This document shows positions 18,215-31,655 of a stretch of 64,000 nt of DNA, one piece after another. Below the pieces are notes generated by a model. It did no database searches and was not told where the DNA came from. It worked only from the letters and a program-made list of their open reading frames with translations. This DNA is from Candidatus Omnitrophota bacterium (GTDB taxonomy: Bacteria; Omnitrophota; Gorgyraeia; Duberdicusellales; 4484-171). Position numbers and translations under genes: made by a program. The stretch spans positions 1 through 64,000 of the forward strand of contig JAIPGM010000002.1 in the NCBI GenBank assembly GCA_021735655.1, given 5' to 3'. Numbering within the stretch: the first letter of the stretch is position 1; every line of letters begins with the position of its first letter.

Positions 18215-20224
18215 ATGAACCCTTTTTTGAATGTTTTAGAATCACAAAATATACCGAAAGAATCCTGTTTAAAAAGAGCAGAGTTGACCACCCTGCAGGT
18301 TAATATGGGCGACCTTTGCAATCAAAGCTGTTCGCATTGTCATGTGGGCTCCTCGCCCCAGGGAAAGAAGATCATGCCGCTGGAAGTGGTTGACCGAATT
18401 TTAGAGTTTCTTTCAAAAAACAGAGGGCTGATATTGGATATAACCGGCGGCGCGCCGGAACTCAATCCCAATTTCGATTATTTCCTTGAGAAAGCAAGGC
18501 CGCTGGCCAGGGAGATTGTCATAAGGTCGAATCTGACCGTGTTTTTTGAACCCGGTAAAGAATACTTGCCCGAATTTTTTAAAAGGAATAACATACATCT
18601 TATATGTTCACTTCCCTGTTATGAGGAAAAAAATGTAGACGCCCAAAGAGGCCTGGGTGTATTTGAAAAGAGTATAAAAGCGCTTCAGCTGCTAAATAGC
18701 TGTGGATACTCTCAAGATAAAGAACTGGTCTTAGACCTTGCATATAATCCTAAAGGTATAAATCTGCCTCCTCAACAGGATATCCTTGAAAGAGAGTACA
18801 GAGAAAACCTTAAAAAAAGTTACGGAGTGGAATTTAACAGACTCGTTGCTATGACCAACGTTCCGATAAAAAGATTCAAGGAATATTTGGAAGCCAACGG
18901 CGAATATAGTAATTATGTCCGGCTCCTGGAAGATAATTTCAATCCTGATACGGTTACCGGTATTATGTGTCGGCGGTATCTCAGTGTAGGCTACGACGGA
19001 AAATTATACGACTGCGATTTTAACCAATCACTTAACTGGGCTTTAAAGGACGAGAAGGCTAAGCCTCTTAGTATAGATAAAGTAGATATAAAAGATATTG
19101 AAAACAGAGATGTTATGGTGGGGGAGCACTGTTTTTCATGTACCGCAGGCTTCGGTTCAAGCTGCCAGGGAGCGCTTGACATTAAGGAAACCGTAAAAGC
19201 GTATTACGGCAAAGTCCTTAAAACCACAAAAGACCTAAAGACGACCGCCTGTTGTTCAGTAGATGCTATGCCTAAAAAGCAAAGAGAATACTTGGCTAAA
19301 ATCCACCCCGAAATTTGTGATAAATTTTATGGCTGCGGCTCTCCTATCCCACCGCTTTTAAAGGACCTAAAAGTTTTGGATTTAGGTTGTGGCACAGGCA
19401 GGGATACTTATCTGGTTTCACAGATGGTAGGGAGCAGGGGTTTTGTTATCGGCGTCGACATGACCGATGAACAACTCGATATAGCGAGGAAGCACATTGA
19501 TTACCAGACAGAAAAATCCGGTTTTAAAAAGCCTAATGTTGATTTTAGGAAGGGTTATATAGAAAACCTAAAAAGTGTCGGTATAAAGGATAACTCTATA
19601 GACTTGGTTATATCAAACTGCGTTATTAATCTTTCACCGGATAAGATAGGGGTGTTCTCGGAAGTTTTCCGTGTCTTAAAACCGGGAGGTGAATTTTATT
19701 TCGCCGATGTATTCTGCGGCCGCCGGATGCCGGAACACCTCAAGCATGACTCGGTACTTTACGGTGAATGCCTGGGAGGGGCGCTTTACATAGAGGATTT
19801 TCGCCGTAGTTTAAGAAAAATCGGCTGTTTGGATTATAGAGTAGTAACTTCCCGAAGAATAGCGCTTAACAATAAAGAAGTTGAAGAGAAAGTCGGCGGG
19901 ATTGATTTTTACTCTATGACTATACGGGCTTTTAAGCTGGATGATTTGGAAGACATCTGCGAAGATTATGGCCAGACTGCTGTTTATCTTGGCACGATAT
20001 CCGGATGCGCGCACCAATTCAAACTTGACGATCATCATCTGTTTTTTACCGGCAAACCGATGCTTGTGTGTGGGAATACCGCTTCAATGCTTTCAAATAC
20101 ACGGTACGGTAAACATTTTAAAATAGTTGGAGATAAAAGCCGTCATTTTGGGCCGTTTCCCTGTGGGCCAACTCCCGCGGCATCAAAGACCGATGTAGTC
20201 AAAACCGGCGGCAGTTGTTGTTAA
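18215..20224 (+). CDS. arsSM: Fusion of arsenosugar-type radical SAM protein (ArsS-like) and arsenite S-adenosylmethionine methyltransferase (ArsM-like)
   Basis: N-term has the radical SAM cluster motif CNQSCSHC plus LSVGYDGKLYDCDFNQSL and a Cys-rich CFSCTAGFGSSC region. C-term has ArsM Cys pairs (TACCS, YGCGSP), the SAM motif VLDLGCGTGRD and VLKPGGEFYFADV. One continuous 669-aa ORF. Confidence 0.7.
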   Translation: MNPFLNVLESQNIPKESCLKRAELTTLQVNMGDLCNQSCSHCHVGSSPQGKKIMPLEVVDRILEFLSKNRGLILDITGGAPELNPNFDYFLEKARPLAREIVIRSNLTVFFEPGKEYLPEFFKRNNIHLICSLPCYEEKNVDAQRGLGVFEKSIKALQLLNSCGYSQDKELVLDLAYNPKGINLPPQQDILEREYRENLKKSYGVEFNRLVAMTNVPIKRFKEYLEANGEYSNYVRLLEDNFNPDTVTGIMCRRYLSVGYDGKLYDCDFNQSLNWALKDEKAKPLSIDKVDIKDIENRDVMVGEHCFSCTAGFGSSCQGALDIKETVKAYYGKVLKTTKDLKTTACCSVDAMPKKQREYLAKIHPEICDKFYGCGSPIPPLLKDLKVLDLGCGTGRDTYLVSQMVGSRGFVIGVDMTDEQLDIARKHIDYQTEKSGFKKPNVDFRKGYIENLKSVGIKDNSIDLVISNCVINLSPDKIGVFSEVFRVLKPGGEFYFADVFCGRRMPEHLKHDSVLYGECLGGALYIEDFRRSLRKIGCLDYRVVTSRRIALNNKEVEEKVGGIDFYSMTIRAFKLDDLEDICEDYGQTAVYLGTISGCAHQFKLDDHHLFFTGKPMLVCGNTASMLSNTRYGKHFKIVGDKSRHFGPFPCGPTPAASKTDVVKTGGSCC

Positions 20225-20237
20225 TAAGATATAACCA

Positions 20238-20256
20238 TTCCGCCGCGTCGGCGGAA
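20238..20256 (+). terminator. GC-rich hairpin ttccgccg-cgt-cggcggaa followed by an A/T run. Likely the arsSM terminator.
   Basis: 8-bp perfect stem with a 3-nt loop read directly. Its reverse-complement twin lies at 20310-20328. Confidence 0.45.
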
Positions 20257-20566
20257 AAATTTGCTATCTGAAACACCTTTGTTCTATTAGCTTATTTTAA
20301 TACGGTCAATTCCGCCGACGCGGCGGAATTGGTTTGACAATACGGTAGATTAAACAAGGAAGTAAATAATGAACTCTACACCCGAAGAAATCAGAGATAT
20401 GGAACATATGCACAGGAAAATGAGCTATAACCAGATTACGGAGTATATTTACGCGGGAAACAACCTGTGTTGTCAGACACATTTTGAGATGGAGTTATTA
20501 GCAAAAGGAATTTCCGCTAAATACAGTGCAAAAAGCCTTTTTAGTTAATTATACCGGGAGGTCCTG

Positions 20567-21583
20567 ATGTCAAAAAAACAATGGTTTATAATATTATTTT
20601 TAATAAGCGGGGTATTTATGAGGGATAATTCATTAGCTGAGGAAAATTTGAAGAAGGCTACATTTGCCGGAGGATGTTTTTGGTGCATGGAGGCGGATTT
20701 TGAGAAAGTCAAAGGTGTCGAGAAGGTGATTTCCGGATATACCGGCGGGGCCGGTGAAAACCCGGTTTATGAAGATTACAGTCAAAAGGGGCATATTGAA
20801 GCCGTGGAAATTTATTACGATCCTTACCGAATAAGTTATCGGAAATTACTGGATATTTTTTGGACCAAGATAGACCCGATTGATGCCGGCGGCCAGTTTT
20901 GCGATCGGGGCCAGGCTTACACCACAGCGATTTTTTACCATAACCGGGAACAAAAGCAGTTGGCTGATGAATCAAAACAGCGGTTGGAGGAGTCAGGCAG
21001 ATTAAAACAGCCCATTGTTACTAAAATCATCAAGGCCGGCAAATTTTATCCGGCTGAAGACTATCATCAGGATTATTATAAAAAGAACCGGTTAAGATAT
21101 AAATTTTACCGGTTTAACTGCGGCCGCGATCAGCGTCTCAAAGAGATCTGGGGCCGGGTTAGCAAGGATGAGTTAAGAAATAGGTTAACTCCGATGCAGT
21201 ATAAAGTTACTCAAGAAGACGGCACAGAACCGGCGTTTAAAAACCAATACTGGGATAATAAAAGAGAGGGTATCTATGTTGATATTGTTTCCGGCGAGCC
21301 GCTGTTTAGCTCTTTGGATAAATTCGAATCCGGCACTGGCTGGCCAAGTTTTACCAAGCCGCTTGAGCCAGACAATATTGTCGTAAGGGAAGACAGGAGC
21401 TGGTTTTCGCTGAGGACGGAAGCAAGAAGCAAACAGGCCGATTCGCACCTTGGCCATGTATTTGATGACGGCCCAAAACCCACGGGGTTACGCTACTGCA
21501 TAAATTCAGCGGCTTTAAGGTTTATTCCTAAGGAAGATTTAGAGAAGGAAGGGTACCCAGAATATAAAAAACTTTTTGAATAG
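20567..21583 (+). CDS. msrAB: Bifunctional peptide methionine sulfoxide reductase MsrA-MsrB, secreted
   Basis: Signal peptide. MsrA GCFWCME motif. C-terminal MsrB motif RYCINSAAL with upstream [10 protein letters not shown]. Confidence 0.85.
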
Positions 21584-21593
21584 GGGTATAAAA

Positions 21594-22235
21594 ATGAAAG
21601 CCGTAGATTCAATTATTTTTGATCTTGACGGAACGCTGGTTGACTCAAAAGAAGATATAGTAAATGCCGTCAATTTCACTTTAAAAAAACTGGGCCTTAG
21701 CCAGAAACAAGCTGATGAGATCGCCTCCTATATCGGTACGGGCGCCGAAGACCTAATCAGAAAGGCAATCGGTGATAAAAACAGAGATCTGTTTGATAAG
21801 GGGATTTCTATATTCGAGGATGATTACAAAAAGCACTCGGCAACAAAGAGTAAACTTTATCCGCACGTGGAAGAGGTTTTAGAGTATTTTAAAAATAAAA
21901 ATCTTTTTATTGTCACTAACCGAAAAAAAAATATGGCACAGATCACTTTAAACAGTTTAGGGATTAATAAATATTTTAAAGATGTCGTAGGCGGGGATGA
22001 TGAAACCTGCCTGAAACCCTCCGCATGTTCATTGGAGAAGGCTTTAGGAAACGTCCAAGACAGAAAAAGAATCATTATAGTCGGGGATATGGATTTGGAT
22101 GTGCTAACCGGTAAAGAAGCCGGCATATTGACCTGTGCTGTCACTTATGGAATAGGGAAGAGGGATGATATAGTCAAGGTAAAACCGGATTATCTAGTCG
22201 ATGATTTGTTGCAACTTAAGGAGATAATTAGATGA
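21594..22235 (+). CDS. HAD-superfamily hydrolase (phosphoglycolate phosphatase-like)
   Basis: IIFDLDGTLVDS (motif I), VTNRKK, GDMDLDV (motif IV). ATG at 21594 preferred over the track start. Confidence 0.7.
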   Translation: MKAVDSIIFDLDGTLVDSKEDIVNAVNFTLKKLGLSQKQADEIASYIGTGAEDLIRKAIGDKNRDLFDKGISIFEDDYKKHSATKSKLYPHVEEVLEYFKNKNLFIVTNRKKNMAQITLNSLGINKYFKDVVGGDDETCLKPSACSLEKALGNVQDRKRIIIVGDMDLDVLTGKEAGILTCAVTYGIGKRDDIVKVKPDYLVDDLLQLKEIIR

Positions 22236-22279
22236 TCTATGGCAAAAATCTATGAGAATATGGATATAAGGGAGAAGAT

Positions 22280-23329
22280 ATGGACAACAATAAAAAAATA
22301 TTTCTTTATGATTCGAAGCCTTATGATCAAGAAGCTTTTGATCAGGCCAATAAAAAGCATGGTTTTGATATCCAGTATTTCAATGGGCATCTAAACCATA
22401 ATACAGCTTGTTTGTCTAAGGGCAGTGATGCGGTTTGTGCTTTTGTTAACGATACAATAGATAAGCCGGTAGTGGAAGTTCTTAAAGAGTGTAATATCGG
22501 CTTAATTGCCTTACGCAGTGCCGGATATAACAATGTTGATTTAAAGGCAGCTTACGGCACTATCCATGTGGCCCGGGTGCCGGGGTATTCTCCTTATGCG
22601 GTGGCCGAACACGCCAGCGCTCTTTTATTGAGCCTGAACCGGAAAACTCATAAAGCTTATCACCGGACACGCGAGGGAAATTTTTCAATCAACGGCTTGA
22701 TCGGCTTTGACCTTCACGCTAAAACCGCTGGGGTTATCGGAACCGGAAAGATCGGGCGTTGTTTGATATCGATTCTGAAAGGCTTTGGGATGAAGGTCCT
22801 GGCCTATGATGTTTATCCCGATGAAGAATATGCAGAGGCTAGCGGCATTAGCTATACGGACTTGCCCGAGCTGTATGCTAAATCGGACATTATTTCTCTG
22901 CATTGCCCGTTAAACAAAGATACCTACCATTTGATCGACAACCAAAGTATAAACCAGATGAAGCCGGGTGTTTTTTTAATAAATACCGGCCGGGGAGGCC
23001 TGGTAAAAACTCAAGACCTCATTGAAGGGTTAAAGAGCGGTAAAATAGGCGCTGCCGGCCTGGATGTGTACGAAGAAGAAAGCGAGTATTTTTTTGAAGA
23101 TTTTTCAGCTTCGATGATCAGCGATGATATCCTGGCCCGGCTTTTGACCTTTCCCAATGTACTTATCACATCACATCAGGGATTTTTCACAAAAGAAGCG
23201 TTGAGCAATATTGCCGAAACTACTTTAGCTAATATTAAAGAGTATTTTGAAGGAGGTTTTTTAAAGAATGAAATCTGTTACCGCTGCGATAAACAATGCT
23301 GCAAGAAACAAAAACAGCGCTGCTTTTAA
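22280..23329 (+). CDS. ldhA: D-isomer-specific 2-hydroxyacid dehydrogenase (D-lactate dehydrogenase-like)
   Basis: GVIGTGKIGR NAD-binding motif and catalytic R/E/H region. The last ~20 aa (Cys-rich) arise from overlap with the sigma-factor gene and may not be real. Confidence 0.75.
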   Translation: MDNNKKIFLYDSKPYDQEAFDQANKKHGFDIQYFNGHLNHNTACLSKGSDAVCAFVNDTIDKPVVEVLKECNIGLIALRSAGYNNVDLKAAYGTIHVARVPGYSPYAVAEHASALLLSLNRKTHKAYHRTREGNFSINGLIGFDLHAKTAGVIGTGKIGRCLISILKGFGMKVLAYDVYPDEEYAEASGISYTDLPELYAKSDIISLHCPLNKDTYHLIDNQSINQMKPGVFLINTGRGGLVKTQDLIEGLKSGKIGAAGLDVYEEESEYFFEDFSASMISDDILARLLTFPNVLITSHQGFFTKEALSNIAETTLANIKEYFEGGFLKNEICYRCDKQCCKKQKQRCF

Positions 23330-24095
23330 GCAGAAACTAAAGAGTATTTTTATCGCTTACCAGGATAAAATTTATGGCCTGGCTTTGAGTATCTGCCGCA
23401 ATCCTAAAGACGCCGAAGATATCACTCAAAATACATTCAGTAAGATTATTCTTAATTTGGATAAATTCCGCGGCCAATCCAATATTGCTACCTGGATTTA
23501 CCGGATTAGCTATAACGAAGCTTTGATGTTTTTACGGAAAAAGCGCCGCGATTTGAGGTTACAGGACAATATCGATTATCATATCTTAAAAGACAGATCC
23601 GCGGTATTGGCGGATTGGCCGTTGCTTCCTGATGATTTATTGGTGAATAAAGAATTACACCGGAAAATCAATTCGTCCATACAAAGGCTGGATCTTAAGT
23701 ATCGCTTACCCTTGTTGTTGCATCATGTCCATGGCTTAGCGATAAAAGAGGCAGCTAAAGTTTTAGATATAAAGGCCAATTCCTTTAAAACCAGGCTCCA
23801 TCGGGCCTATCTAATGCTGCGGGGCGAGCTAACCGCCTATTTCGCCGATGCTCGGGAGGAAAAAATCGGTTTTAAAACATTGGTTTGCGATCGTTCGCTT
23901 AAATTCATTTATGATTATTCTTGCAATAAGCTCGGCAGCCGGCAGCGTTTAAGATTCGACCAGCATATTAAAGATTGCCGTCCCTGCCGTAGTTTTCTAA
24001 ACGATTATCAGCAGGCAATAAAAATAACTCAGTCTTTACAGTGTCGTGATTTACCAGAAGCGCTTCGGGAAAAACTAAAAACTCTTTTTACTTAA
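23268..24095 (+). CDS. ECF-type sigma-70 family factor with a C-terminal ZAS-like (H-x3-C-x2-C) zinc-finger extension
   Basis: Region 2 (DITQNTFSKIILNLDKFRG ... WIYRISYNEAL) and region 4 (LAIKEAAKVLDIKANSFKTRLHRA). An extra ~80-aa tail carries CDRS ... C ... HIKDCRPCRSF. Confidence 0.7.
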   Translation: MKSVTAAINNAARNKNSAAFKQKLKSIFIAYQDKIYGLALSICRNPKDAEDITQNTFSKIILNLDKFRGQSNIATWIYRISYNEALMFLRKKRRDLRLQDNIDYHILKDRSAVLADWPLLPDDLLVNKELHRKINSSIQRLDLKYRLPLLLHHVHGLAIKEAAKVLDIKANSFKTRLHRAYLMLRGELTAYFADAREEKIGFKTLVCDRSLKFIYDYSCNKLGSRQRLRFDQHIKDCRPCRSFLNDYQQAIKITQSLQCRDLPEALREKLKTLFT

Positions 24096-24106
24096 ATAAT
24101 AGATAT

Positions 24107-24162
24107 TTGAAACTTTTTTTATTTTTTAACATCTAAATCAGAATAAGGAGGTGAGGGTTATG
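24107..24162 (+). promoter_or_regulatory. ECF (sigmaE-type) promoter GAAACTT-N16-TCTAAAT plus conserved leader/RBS. Copy 1 of a duplicated ~56-58-bp element.
   Basis: ttgaaactttttttattttttaacatctaaatcagaataaggaggtgagggttatg. A near-identical copy is at 30909-30964. Confidence 0.6.
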
Positions 24163-24546
24163 TTAAGAAAGATATGTTCGTTGGGCCTTGGTTTGGTAAT
24201 GTTGTTTAGCCTGTCTGGATGCGCCTTGCTTTTAGCCGGGGCTGCCGGCGGCGCCGGAACAGCATTTTGGCTGGGCGGTAAGTTGGAAAGCGAAGTAGCG
24301 GCTAGTTACCAAAGGACTATCGATGCTAGCAAGCGAGCCTTGAGTTCGCTGGGTATGGAGATAGTTAAAGAAGCAAAATCAGATGAGGTTACTCAGATTC
24401 GCAGTGAGTACACTGATGGTAGAAAAGTCTGGTTAGATATCCGTAAGTTTAGCGAAAAAACTTCAAAGTTGGAAATTCGCGTTGGTGCCAAGGGTGATCA
24501 GGCAGCATCAACTAAGCTGTTGGAGCGGATCAAGAAATACCTTTGA
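24160..24546 (+). CDS. Lipoprotein (DUF3568-like)
   Basis: Lipobox LSGC after a hydrophobic signal, Gly-rich region. ATG at 24160 preferred over the GTG at 24151. Confidence 0.55.
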   Translation: MLRKICSLGLGLVMLFSLSGCALLLAGAAGGAGTAFWLGGKLESEVAASYQRTIDASKRALSSLGMEIVKEAKSDEVTQIRSEYTDGRKVWLDIRKFSEKTSKLEIRVGAKGDQAASTKLLERIKKYL

Positions 24547-24548
24547 TT

Positions 24549-26684
24549 TTAAGCTTCACAGGTTTTCCGGGTAAAGACATTGCAGATGAACCAAGGCATA
24601 AGGTAAAGGGCAATTAAGGCGGCCATCAAAGAACCGGCGATTATAATACCGCCAAAGCGTTGAGTAGGCGGAAATTGCGAAAAAAGAAATACCCCAAAAC
24701 CGAGGCCGATGATCAACAGAGTGTTAAATACCGGGTTCCAGAGATAAGTTCTTACTTTTTCCCAGCGCCGCCGGGTAGTTTTTTCTTCGGCTTTGATCCG
24801 GCGCCAGTATTTGACCATGTGGATCATCGTATCAATGCCGATAGCAATAGCCACATTCAACGAAGGAGCAGCCACTATATCCAGAGGCATGCCGATTAAG
24901 CCAATAGCGCCCAAGCTAATTAGGGGGATTATTAAAATTCCTAAAGTCATCGATAAACTTACTGGCAGCGAACGGGAAACCAGCCAGCTGATCAGGAAAA
25001 AAATAAACAACAATCGGAACAAGCCGAAGACCAGGCTTGAGCTTACTAGTTTTGCCAGGCGCCCCTGCAAGGCGTAGACCCCGCCGGTGATTTCCGGGAC
25101 AAAGCCGTTTTCGCGTACCAGTTCTTTTAATTCAGCAATGATTTCTAAACGGGTTTTTGTCCGTCCGGTTTCTTTCATCCGCAGTAGAAAAAGCCCGTTT
25201 TTTCGGTCAGGGCTGATAAAGATTTTTCCGATTTCGTTATGGCTGGGTTTTTCCATAATATTCAGAAGCCAATCCCAGCCTAAAAAGAAAGAAAAGGGAT
25301 GTTGTCTGGCCTGAGCCATTAAAACCGGCAGCGAGATCACACTGCCGACAGCTTGGTGTTTTTCTAAGGCAGTCTGGAGCTGCCATAATTGATTATAGCT
25401 TTTGGTGTTATTCAATTTATTTCCGCTTTCAGTCTTTACCACGATAATCAAAGGGTTACTGCCGCCGCTTTGATCAATATAGCGTAAGCCTTCAGTGATC
25501 GGGTCACTCTTTTTAAAATAACTGAATATTGAAGGGTCATTTTTCAACCAGGCTAAGCCCGGCAAAAGTAAGATGCTTAAGCCGATTAAGATTAAGCGAA
25601 AAGCTTTTTTTCGCACTTTTACTTTCTGATAAATAAACTGTTCGCTTTCTTCAAAATAATCATTTTTTACCTGGGAATTTTGAACCCGGCTCAAAAATAA
25701 AGGATAGATTAGATAGGCGCAAGCCATGGCGATAATTGCGCCCAGAGCGCCGGATATCCCTAGTTCACGCAGCGGCTTTGCTGGCACGGTAATTAAGCTT
25801 AAAAAGCCCAGTAAAGTTGTAAACATACTCCAAAATGATGGGCTTAAGGTGTATTGAATTGATTTCTTTATCCGTTGTTGATCGCCAGAAGTATAAGCCA
25901 GATGTTTCCAGTTATAGGTAAGAAAGATTATATGCGATAGAGTAAGTACAAAAGTAATCGTAGTTAAGTTTGCCGTAAGCAAGCCGATCTTAATATTAAA
26001 TACTTTAGCTGCGATTATAGTCAGCATGGCGGCGTTAAGGCAAGCTAAGAGTGTCCCGAGCAAAATAGACCAGGAACGGAAAATAAATAACATTAATCCG
26101 GCGAAAACCAAAAAAGTCAGCAAGGTAAACAGCCGGAAATCTCTAACTAAATTTTTTTGGATTAGTTTTGTGATGTAGGGGGCTCCGGAAATTCGCAGCC
26201 GGAAATTATCGCCGCTAGCTTTGTTTACTAGTTTTTCGATTGCCGTAAGGTTTTCTTCCAGGCCTTGGCCGGGCAGCACAGCAATGATGTTAGTGGATTT
26301 TTGATCATCGGCGATTAAAAGGCGCCGCCAGAGAGGGCTTTTTAAGCCGGTAGCAAAATCTCCCGGGCCGGTAGCCAGGCTGATCACACTGATTATTTGC
26401 GGTAGAGCATTGATTTTGGCACTTAGATCTTCAACTTTTTTAAGATAAAGCGGTGAGTCGATTTTTCCTTCAGCGCTGATGATCAGCTGATCATCCTGCC
26501 GCTTGAATATTTTTGAAATTCGGCCTTCAGCTTGAGCCTGAGGATCGTGGCTGGAAAAAAAGAAGTTTTGGTCTACTTGGGGGGTTAAATCGATATATTT
26601 AGCGATAACAAAGATATTGGCGGCGGTTAAAAGAATAATTAAAATAAATTTTAATTTTAAGGCCGCAGTTATTGCTTTAAGCAT
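24549..26684 (-). CDS. MMPL/RND-superfamily membrane transporter
   Basis: 711 aa with two 6-TM bundles each followed by a large soluble loop (RND/SSD architecture). Only gene on the minus strand. Confidence 0.6.
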   Translation of the reverse strand: MLKAITAALKLKFILIILLTAANIFVIAKYIDLTPQVDQNFFFSSHDPQAQAEGRISKIFKRQDDQLIISAEGKIDSPLYLKKVEDLSAKINALPQIISVISLATGPGDFATGLKSPLWRRLLIADDQKSTNIIAVLPGQGLEENLTAIEKLVNKASGDNFRLRISGAPYITKLIQKNLVRDFRLFTLLTFLVFAGLMLFIFRSWSILLGTLLACLNAAMLTIIAAKVFNIKIGLLTANLTTITFVLTLSHIIFLTYNWKHLAYTSGDQQRIKKSIQYTLSPSFWSMFTTLLGFLSLITVPAKPLRELGISGALGAIIAMACAYLIYPLFLSRVQNSQVKNDYFEESEQFIYQKVKVRKKAFRLILIGLSILLLPGLAWLKNDPSIFSYFKKSDPITEGLRYIDQSGGSNPLIIVVKTESGNKLNNTKSYNQLWQLQTALEKHQAVGSVISLPVLMAQARQHPFSFFLGWDWLLNIMEKPSHNEIGKIFISPDRKNGLFLLRMKETGRTKTRLEIIAELKELVRENGFVPEITGGVYALQGRLAKLVSSSLVFGLFRLLFIFFLISWLVSRSLPVSLSMTLGILIIPLISLGAIGLIGMPLDIVAAPSLNVAIAIGIDTMIHMVKYWRRIKAEEKTTRRRWEKVRTYLWNPVFNTLLIIGLGFGVFLFSQFPPTQRFGGIIIAGSLMAALIALYLMPWFICNVFTRKTCEA

Positions 26685-30908: not shown

Positions 30909-30964
30909 TTGAAACTTTTCTTATTTTTTAGCATCTAAATTAAGATAAGGGGGTGAGGGTTATG
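30909..30964 (+). promoter_or_regulatory. Copy 2 of the ECF promoter/leader element (GAAACTT-N16-TCTAAAT ... GGGGGTGAGGGTTATG)
   Basis: ttgaaacttttcttattttttagcatctaaattaagataagggggtgagggttatg. About 90% identical to 24107-24162, including the start codon context. Confidence 0.6.
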
Positions 30965-31330
30965 CTAAAAGAAATAAGCCGGGAAGAATTAAGCGATTTG
31001 ATCGAATCAGGAGAAGATTTTAAATTAGTGGATGTTTTGAGCCGGGAAAGCTTTGCTAAAGGGCACATTAAAGGGGCGGTTTCAATTCCCTTAGCAGAAA
31101 TCGGCCGCAAATCCGCTAAGTTACTTAAAAAGAGGGATAAAATTGTAACTTATTGTGCTAGTTTTGAGTGTTCAGCCAGCACTACGGCTGCCAGGAAATT
31201 GATAGCTTTAGGTTATAAAAATGTTTTTGACTACAAAGGCGGGCTAAAGGATTACCAAGAAGGCGGCTTAAGCCTTGAAACCGGTGCAGGCCAGGCAGAC
31301 AAAAAATGCACTGTTTGTGGAGGAGCTTAA
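30962..31330 (+). CDS. Single-domain rhodanese (sulfurtransferase)
   Basis: Catalytic-loop Cys in IVTYCASFECSAS. ATG at 30962 preferred. Confidence 0.75.
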   Translation: MLKEISREELSDLIESGEDFKLVDVLSRESFAKGHIKGAVSIPLAEIGRKSAKLLKKRDKIVTYCASFECSASTTAARKLIALGYKNVFDYKGGLKDYQEGGLSLETGAGQADKKCTVCGGA

Positions 31331-31346
31331 GGAAAGGAGGCTTATC

Positions 31347-31655
31347 ATGAAACAAGAAAAAATGAAATTCCGCGTCTGTCCGTCGGTGAGTATGAACTAC
31401 AGCGATGATGGTAACAGCATTACCACTGAAATAGACTTGGCTGGAGTTAAGAAAAAAGATATCTCTTTAGAGAGTGGTAAAGCTGGTTTTTGCTTGAAGG
31501 CCGGCAAGGAAGACCTGATTTTTGACTCTTGTTATCGGTTTTGCGAAGAGGTAGATGCCGAAAAAATTAATGCTGAATTTCGCAATGGCATGTTGAGGAT
31601 AACTGCACCGGTAGAAAAGAGCTTTTTACATGCCAGAAAGATTTCGGTTCACTAA
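31347..31655 (+). CDS. Hsp20/alpha-crystallin family small heat-shock protein
   Basis: ITTEIDLAGVKKKDISLE ... FRNGMLRITAPV (IxI-like end). GGAGG RBS before the ATG at 31347. The track start at 31275 is an over-extension into the rhodanese gene. Confidence 0.75.
   Translation: MKQEKMKFRVCPSVSMNYSDDGNSITTEIDLAGVKKKDISLESGKAGFCLKAGKEDLIFDSCYRFCEEVDAEKINAEFRNGMLRITAPVEKSFLHARKISVH

Follow-up and report, generated by a model that had tools for sequence, protein, structure and literature searches.

A 275-amino-acid protein, which is encoded in a 64-kb stretch of DNA (the window) from Candidatus Omnitrophota, is an ECF sigma factor with a SigW-like core and is fused to a C-terminal ZAS anti-sigma domain. 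As judged from its sequence, this domain is real, complete, soluble and RsrA-sized, and it belongs to the CHCC type with a putative zinc site. The fused protein probably functions as a one-protein oxidative-stress switch, whose redox trigger is suggested by the genomic context. The fusion of an ECF sigma factor with a ZAS domain is rare but already catalogued and has been described for ECF48, ECF52, ECF53 and some members of ECF270 (PMC8999054). The architecture is therefore less novel than first supposed, and current concepts are not changed, since fused ZAS extensions are already listed in the ECF field. To our knowledge, no experiment has yet addressed a fused ZAS domain of the soluble type. 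As a rule, anti-sigma factors act in trans, and the release of the sigma factor is the core question of ECF signalling. A sigma factor that is combined with a minimal soluble ZAS domain in one protein is a simple system in which it can be asked whether zinc-thiolate oxidation suffices by itself to open the sigma factor, and it can also show how a tethered inhibitor is overcome. The features discussed below are listed in Table 1.

Table 1. Location of the fused gene, its domains and the neighbouring features in the window.
Feature	Position (nt)	Strand	Basis or remark
Fused ECF sigma factor / ZAS anti-sigma gene	23268..24095	+	ORF list; P0001 is an exact match to GenBank MCF7907460.1 (Candidatus Omnitrophota MAG)
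Sigma region 2 (aa 29-94)	23352..23549	+	Pfam PF04542, E 6.4e-15
Sigma region 4 (aa 133-182)	23664..23813	+	Pfam PF08281, E 3.5e-10
Predicted C-terminal ZAS anti-sigma domain (aa 204-275)	23877..24092	+	Alignments, PDB profile matches, zf-HC2, RsrA model, AF2 helices, hhalign
Putative Zn ligand C207	23886-23888	+	
Putative Zn ligand H233	23964-23966	+	
Putative Zn ligand C237	23976-23978	+	
Putative Zn ligand C240	23985-23987	+	
Extra invariant C259	24042-24044	+	Inside the L-x-C-x-D-[IL]-P motif
Probable operon with the sigma gene	20567..23329	+	MsrA-MsrB, HAD hydrolase, dehydrogenase
Exported MsrA-MsrB fusion	20567-21583	+	
HAD hydrolase	21576-22235	+	
D-2-hydroxyacid dehydrogenase, 349 aa	22280-23329	+	Overlaps the sigma start
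Predicted target promoter 1	24107..24138	+	TTGAAAC-N16-CATCTAAAT, 12 nt past the sigma stop codon
DUF3568 lipoprotein gene behind promoter 1	24160..24546	+	Pfam PF12092, E 1.5e-25; gene call in L088; alternative GTG start 24151
Predicted target promoter 2	30909..30940	+	
Single-domain rhodanese with Cys-containing C-terminal tail, behind promoter 2	30962..31330	+	Pfam PF00581, E 1.8e-19; alternative GTG start 30953
Hsp20 ORF following the rhodanese	31275-31655		

An earlier, sequence-only reading of this DNA had proposed an open reading frame with sigma-70 regions 2 and 4, and both the exact boundaries of the frame and the two regions (Pfam Sigma70_r2 and Sigma70_r4_2) were recovered. The frame begins with an ATG codon, which is preceded at a distance of 11 nt by the sequence AGGAGG, and no other in-frame ATG, GTG or TTG codon is located ahead of sigma region 2. 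The domain models PF04542 and PF08281 reached 55.1 bits (cut-off 24) and 39.8 bits (cut-off 25.7), respectively, and 79.9 bits were obtained with the NCBIfam model TIGR02937 (sigma70-ECF; cut-off 42.9). With Pfam and NCBIfam models, no sigma1 or sigma3 domain was found in the 275-amino-acid protein, and the presence of sigma2 and sigma4 only, with the models above threshold, places it among the ECF (group IV) sigma-70 factors. The structural matches of the sigma core are ECF sigma factors, the best of which is SigW in its RsiW-bound form.

The same reading had noticed a tail of around 80 amino acids with cysteine residues and an H-x3-C-x2-C motif and had interpreted it as a ZAS-like zinc finger. 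The motif is found as HIKDCRPCRSF at amino acids 233 to 243 (nt 23964-23996), and the tail additionally contains Cys207 and Cys259. The resulting pattern, C207-x25-H233-x3-C237-x2-C240, is spaced like the zinc ligands in RsrA (C11-H37; 26 residues from Cys to His) and corresponds to the class I ZAS motif, in which H-x3-C-x2-C is combined with a fourth ligand around 26 residues upstream. C207, H233, C237, C240, C259, D261 and P263 are invariant in 35 aligned ortholog tails and at least 90% conserved in a wider alignment of 38 sequences, which shows that the pattern did not come about by chance; H-x3-C-x2-C is missing from one member of the family, P0168. Among the open reading frames of at least 60 amino acids in the whole 64-kb window, no second H-x3-C-x2-C motif occurs besides that of the sigma factor tail. 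The tail contains no hydrophobic stretch or transmembrane segment and is predicted to be soluble.

Profile comparisons support the interpretation as a ZAS domain. The first matches of the tail profile in the PDB are the ZAS anti-sigma factors RsrA, RsiW, DdvA and RslA, and zf-HC2 was matched at an E value of at most 0.1 in 30 of the 35 ortholog tails (best E value, 3.6e-10). The 275-amino-acid protein itself reaches only 17 to 19 bits with zf-HC2, which is below the Pfam cut-off of 22.2. The best NCBIfam match of the tail is the RsrA model TIGR03988, with an E value of 5e-6 and 26.5 bits under an equivalog cut-off of 62.5. Since the zf-HC2 and RsrA scores remain below the curated cut-offs, the tail is regarded as a divergent ZAS domain and not as an RsrA ortholog. 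The tail also aligns with the separate anti-sigma factors whose genes follow related sigma genes, and hhalign against one such factor gave a probability of 95.6%.

Whether the tail docks on regions 2 and 4 had been left to structure prediction in the sequence-only reading, and the models point in this direction. In the AF2 model, the tail forms four helices (residues 204-218, 224-233, 238-254 and 264-274) with pLDDT values above 90. Sigma2 and sigma4 are predicted to adopt a closed state resembling that of RsiW-bound SigW when the tail is present, and this arrangement is lost in a tail-less control model. The alignment behind the AlphaFold model is shallow (35 to 38 sequences), and contacts between the tail and the sigma domains are deduced indirectly from the arrangement of sigma2 and sigma4; docking of the tail in cis is thus a feature of the models.

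By sequence, the tail matches RsrA better than any other PDB entry; together with SigR, RsrA forms a thiol-oxidative-stress switch in Streptomyces coelicolor (ECF12). RsrA and the tail share a soluble ZAS domain of around 80 to 100 amino acids with the pattern C-x25-H-x3-C-x2-C and a D-[VI]-P-x-x-L motif ahead of the last helix. The tail positions aligned with the hydrophobic residues F21, V54 and V75 of RsrA are hydrophobic as well, and both systems have a similar thiol-redox gene context. In contrast, of the reported determinants of RsrA redox sensitivity (E39, E40, L45 and E46), the family retains a single one, an acidic residue ahead of the second cysteine (D236, equivalent to E40). SigR and RsrA are two proteins, whereas the Omnitrophota sigma factor and ZAS domain are parts of one polypeptide, and the sigma core is SigW-like, unlike that of SigR. 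The 275-amino-acid protein is not an RsrA ortholog; however, it may still work like RsrA.

The sequence-only reading had further claimed that no separate anti-sigma gene is located downstream and had mentioned two predicted target promoters, and both points stood. The next gene encodes a DUF3568 lipoprotein. The idea that this protein is a hidden anti-sigma factor was rejected in view of its lipoprotein nature, the missing anti-sigma motif and the rhodanese that takes its place in other loci. In 12 of 13 family loci, a conserved promoter motif, TGAAAC-N16-CATCTAAAT, is located 3' of the sigma gene, and a rhodanese gene usually follows. Two matches were found in the 64-kb window (0.03 expected), which are near-identical over a stretch that starts with the -35 element and includes the ribosome-binding site as well as the first codons. 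The rhodanese behind the second copy is the ortholog of the gene that most family loci have directly 3' of the sigma gene (orthologs in L003, L006, L007, L008, L011 and L013). The motif may be recognised by the fused sigma factor, and it differs from the promoter consensus of SigR, which is GGAAT-N18-GTT. A further difference from the SigR-RsrA system concerns autoregulation: a search with a regular expression and a position-weight matrix, which covered the window and 11 family loci, found no copy of the motif ahead of the sigma gene or of its operon. As the sigma gene itself shows no TGAAAC-type promoter, its control would be post-translational. A scan of positions 20100-24700 for sigma-70 promoters and terminators yielded fewer sites than were found in shuffled sequences. 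With its clear motif and small predicted regulon, the system gives a first access to the regulation of the oxidative-stress response in the uncultivated Omnitrophota. The DUF3568 lipoprotein, one of the two products encoded behind the motif in the window, has no obvious redox role.

We consider it fairly likely that the SigW-like ECF sigma factor and the soluble ZAS domain form a switch, which is inhibited in cis, released by thiol oxidation and derived from adjacent sigma and anti-sigma genes. According to this model, the fusion partner of the sigma gene would have been the gene of a small soluble anti-sigma factor, its downstream neighbour in related thiol-stress modules. As long as the tail is reduced and carries Zn, it would be folded back in cis and lie between sigma2 and sigma4, thereby keeping the sigma factor closed and unable to bind RNA polymerase or promoters. 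The trigger in an anaerobe would be the oxidation of thiols by O2, peroxide, disulfide stress or reactive sulfur species, which would lead to the formation of a disulfide among C207, C237 and C240, possibly with participation of C259. Zinc would be expelled and the tail would undock, and the open sigma factor could then guide RNA polymerase to the TGAAAC-N16-CATCTAAAT promoters of the rhodanese gene (with Hsp20) and the DUF3568 lipoprotein gene. A more far-reaching version can be put forward only tentatively: the protein might be a self-contained, reversible one-component switch, which senses oxidants or reactive sulfur species directly by means of its tethered RsrA-like zinc-thiolate domain, requires no partner, proteolysis or autoregulation, and controls a small persulfide and oxidative-stress regulon in anaerobic Omnitrophota, consisting of the Cys-tailed rhodanese, Hsp20 and the lipoprotein. 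If so, no soluble fusion of sigma and anti-sigma factor that acts in cis would have been characterised before it, and a protein that acts as such a switch would be a candidate compact part for synthetic redox-responsive transcription.

A CHCC motif alone is no proof of redox sensitivity, since RsiW of Bacillus subtilis is insensitive: it possesses the motif and forms a C3-C37 disulfide, but SigW stays bound (PMC5358783). RsiW is the partner of SigW in the best structural match of the sigma core (ECF30; PDB 5WUQ/5WUR). The tail could therefore be an inhibitor with a zinc site that is only structural, as in RsiW, and activation could depend on cytoplasmic proteolysis, e.g., by Clp or Lon; we regard this as unlikely. 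ECF sigma factors with fused anti-sigma parts (ECF48, ECF52, ECF53, ECF115 and some ECF270) have been placed under 'proteolysis' (PMC8999054), and more distant relatives of the fused protein have membrane anti-sigma factors of the protease-cleaved type. RsiW is a separate, membrane-anchored protein and is released by regulated proteolysis, whereas the Omnitrophota ZAS domain is fused, soluble and found in an oxidative-stress context. The actinobacterial ECF48, ECF52 and ECF53 proteins (e.g., SCO4117) have the same order of sigma2, sigma4 and ZAS domain and no separate anti-sigma gene (PMC8999054, PMC5826349); however, one or two transmembrane helices follow their ZAS domain in an extension of up to around 400 amino acids in total, which includes an extracytoplasmic part, and proteolytic activation has been proposed for them. 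The Omnitrophota protein stops at amino acid 275, right after the fourth helix, and thus has neither transmembrane helices nor a long extracytoplasmic extension, which sets it apart from these groups and excludes regulated intramembrane proteolysis. The C-terminal ends vary in the alignment, and a conserved degron is not visible there. In the closest unfused relatives, the sigma gene is followed by a gene for a soluble zf-HC2 protein of 86 to 89 amino acids and then by thioredoxin, glutaredoxin and peroxiredoxin genes, which is an RsrA-like layout. Together with the oxidative-stress genes in the neighbourhoods of the orthologs, this context favours the redox switch over proteolysis.

Less probable still is that the tail is no inhibitor but an extension with a positive or modulatory function, or a sensor of Zn, Cd or Cu that is needed for activity, comparable to the extensions of ECF41 and ECF42 or the tail of CorE. 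C-terminal extensions of ECF41, ECF42 and ECF238 can indeed be essential for activity or respond to metals, C259 is a fifth invariant cysteine outside the four canonical ligands, and genes of ZIP and CDF metal transporters are located near some orthologs. However, the entire tail is homologous to bona fide anti-sigma domains as well as to the separately encoded anti-sigma factors of related sigma factors, it has no homology to SnoaL or TPR extensions, and the inhibited sigma conformation was modelled only in its presence. CorE and CorE2 (ECF238, formerly ECF44) share conserved C-terminal cysteines and the lack of an anti-sigma gene with the fused protein, but the CorE tail is a Cys-rich motif of around 20 amino acids that brings about activation in response to metals. 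The Omnitrophota tail shows no homology to this motif and is a four-helix anti-sigma domain of 80 amino acids with homology to RsrA and RsiW. A metal tail of the CorE type was rejected on these grounds of length and anti-sigma homology.

The fused sigma factor is confined to Omnitrophota MAGs, where it is kept in about 35 proteins with 39 to 50% identity. Other fused proteins that were found (P0098, P0115 and P0160) are only around 24% identical to the 275-amino-acid protein. Related loci were searched with the full-length alignment, as the tail-only alignment had no conserved stretch of 7 to 10 columns. Five distant tblastn matches (L014, L022, L027, L034 and L043), which seemingly covered the whole query, were rejected as fused homologues because their reading frames are separate sigma and membrane anti-sigma genes; these separate genes are taken as evidence for an origin by fusion. 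ECF270 and ECF271 are regulated by soluble ZAS proteins, and certain ECF270 members, such as WP_011419852.1 from Anaeromyxobacter, carry regulatory extensions (PMC8999054). In their gene layout, the closest unfused relatives are consistent with these two groups of the classification of Casas-Pastor et al. (2021). Some unfused matches belong to the Anaerolineae within the Chloroflexi, and the ECF271 model protein comes from the same phylum. We know of no ECF270 or ECF271 member that has been studied experimentally. In the unfused relatives, the sigma and anti-sigma genes abut or overlap by ATGA, and a 1-nt error in assembly could in principle join them, but such a frameshift artefact is effectively refuted by a single uninterrupted frame with a conserved junction in the approximately 35 orthologs from many samples, in six GTDB species genomes and in an independent Logan assembly, which contains the same 275-amino-acid frame.

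Upstream of the fused gene, the genes for the MsrA-MsrB fusion, the HAD hydrolase and the dehydrogenase probably form one operon with it, with successive distances of -8, 44 and -62 nt. The last value agrees with the overlap of about 60 nt that had been claimed between the 5' end of the sigma gene and the 3' end of the dehydrogenase gene (ldhA). The frame of the dehydrogenase, including the Cys-rich last 17 or so amino acids, runs to the stop codon at 23329 in both assemblies.

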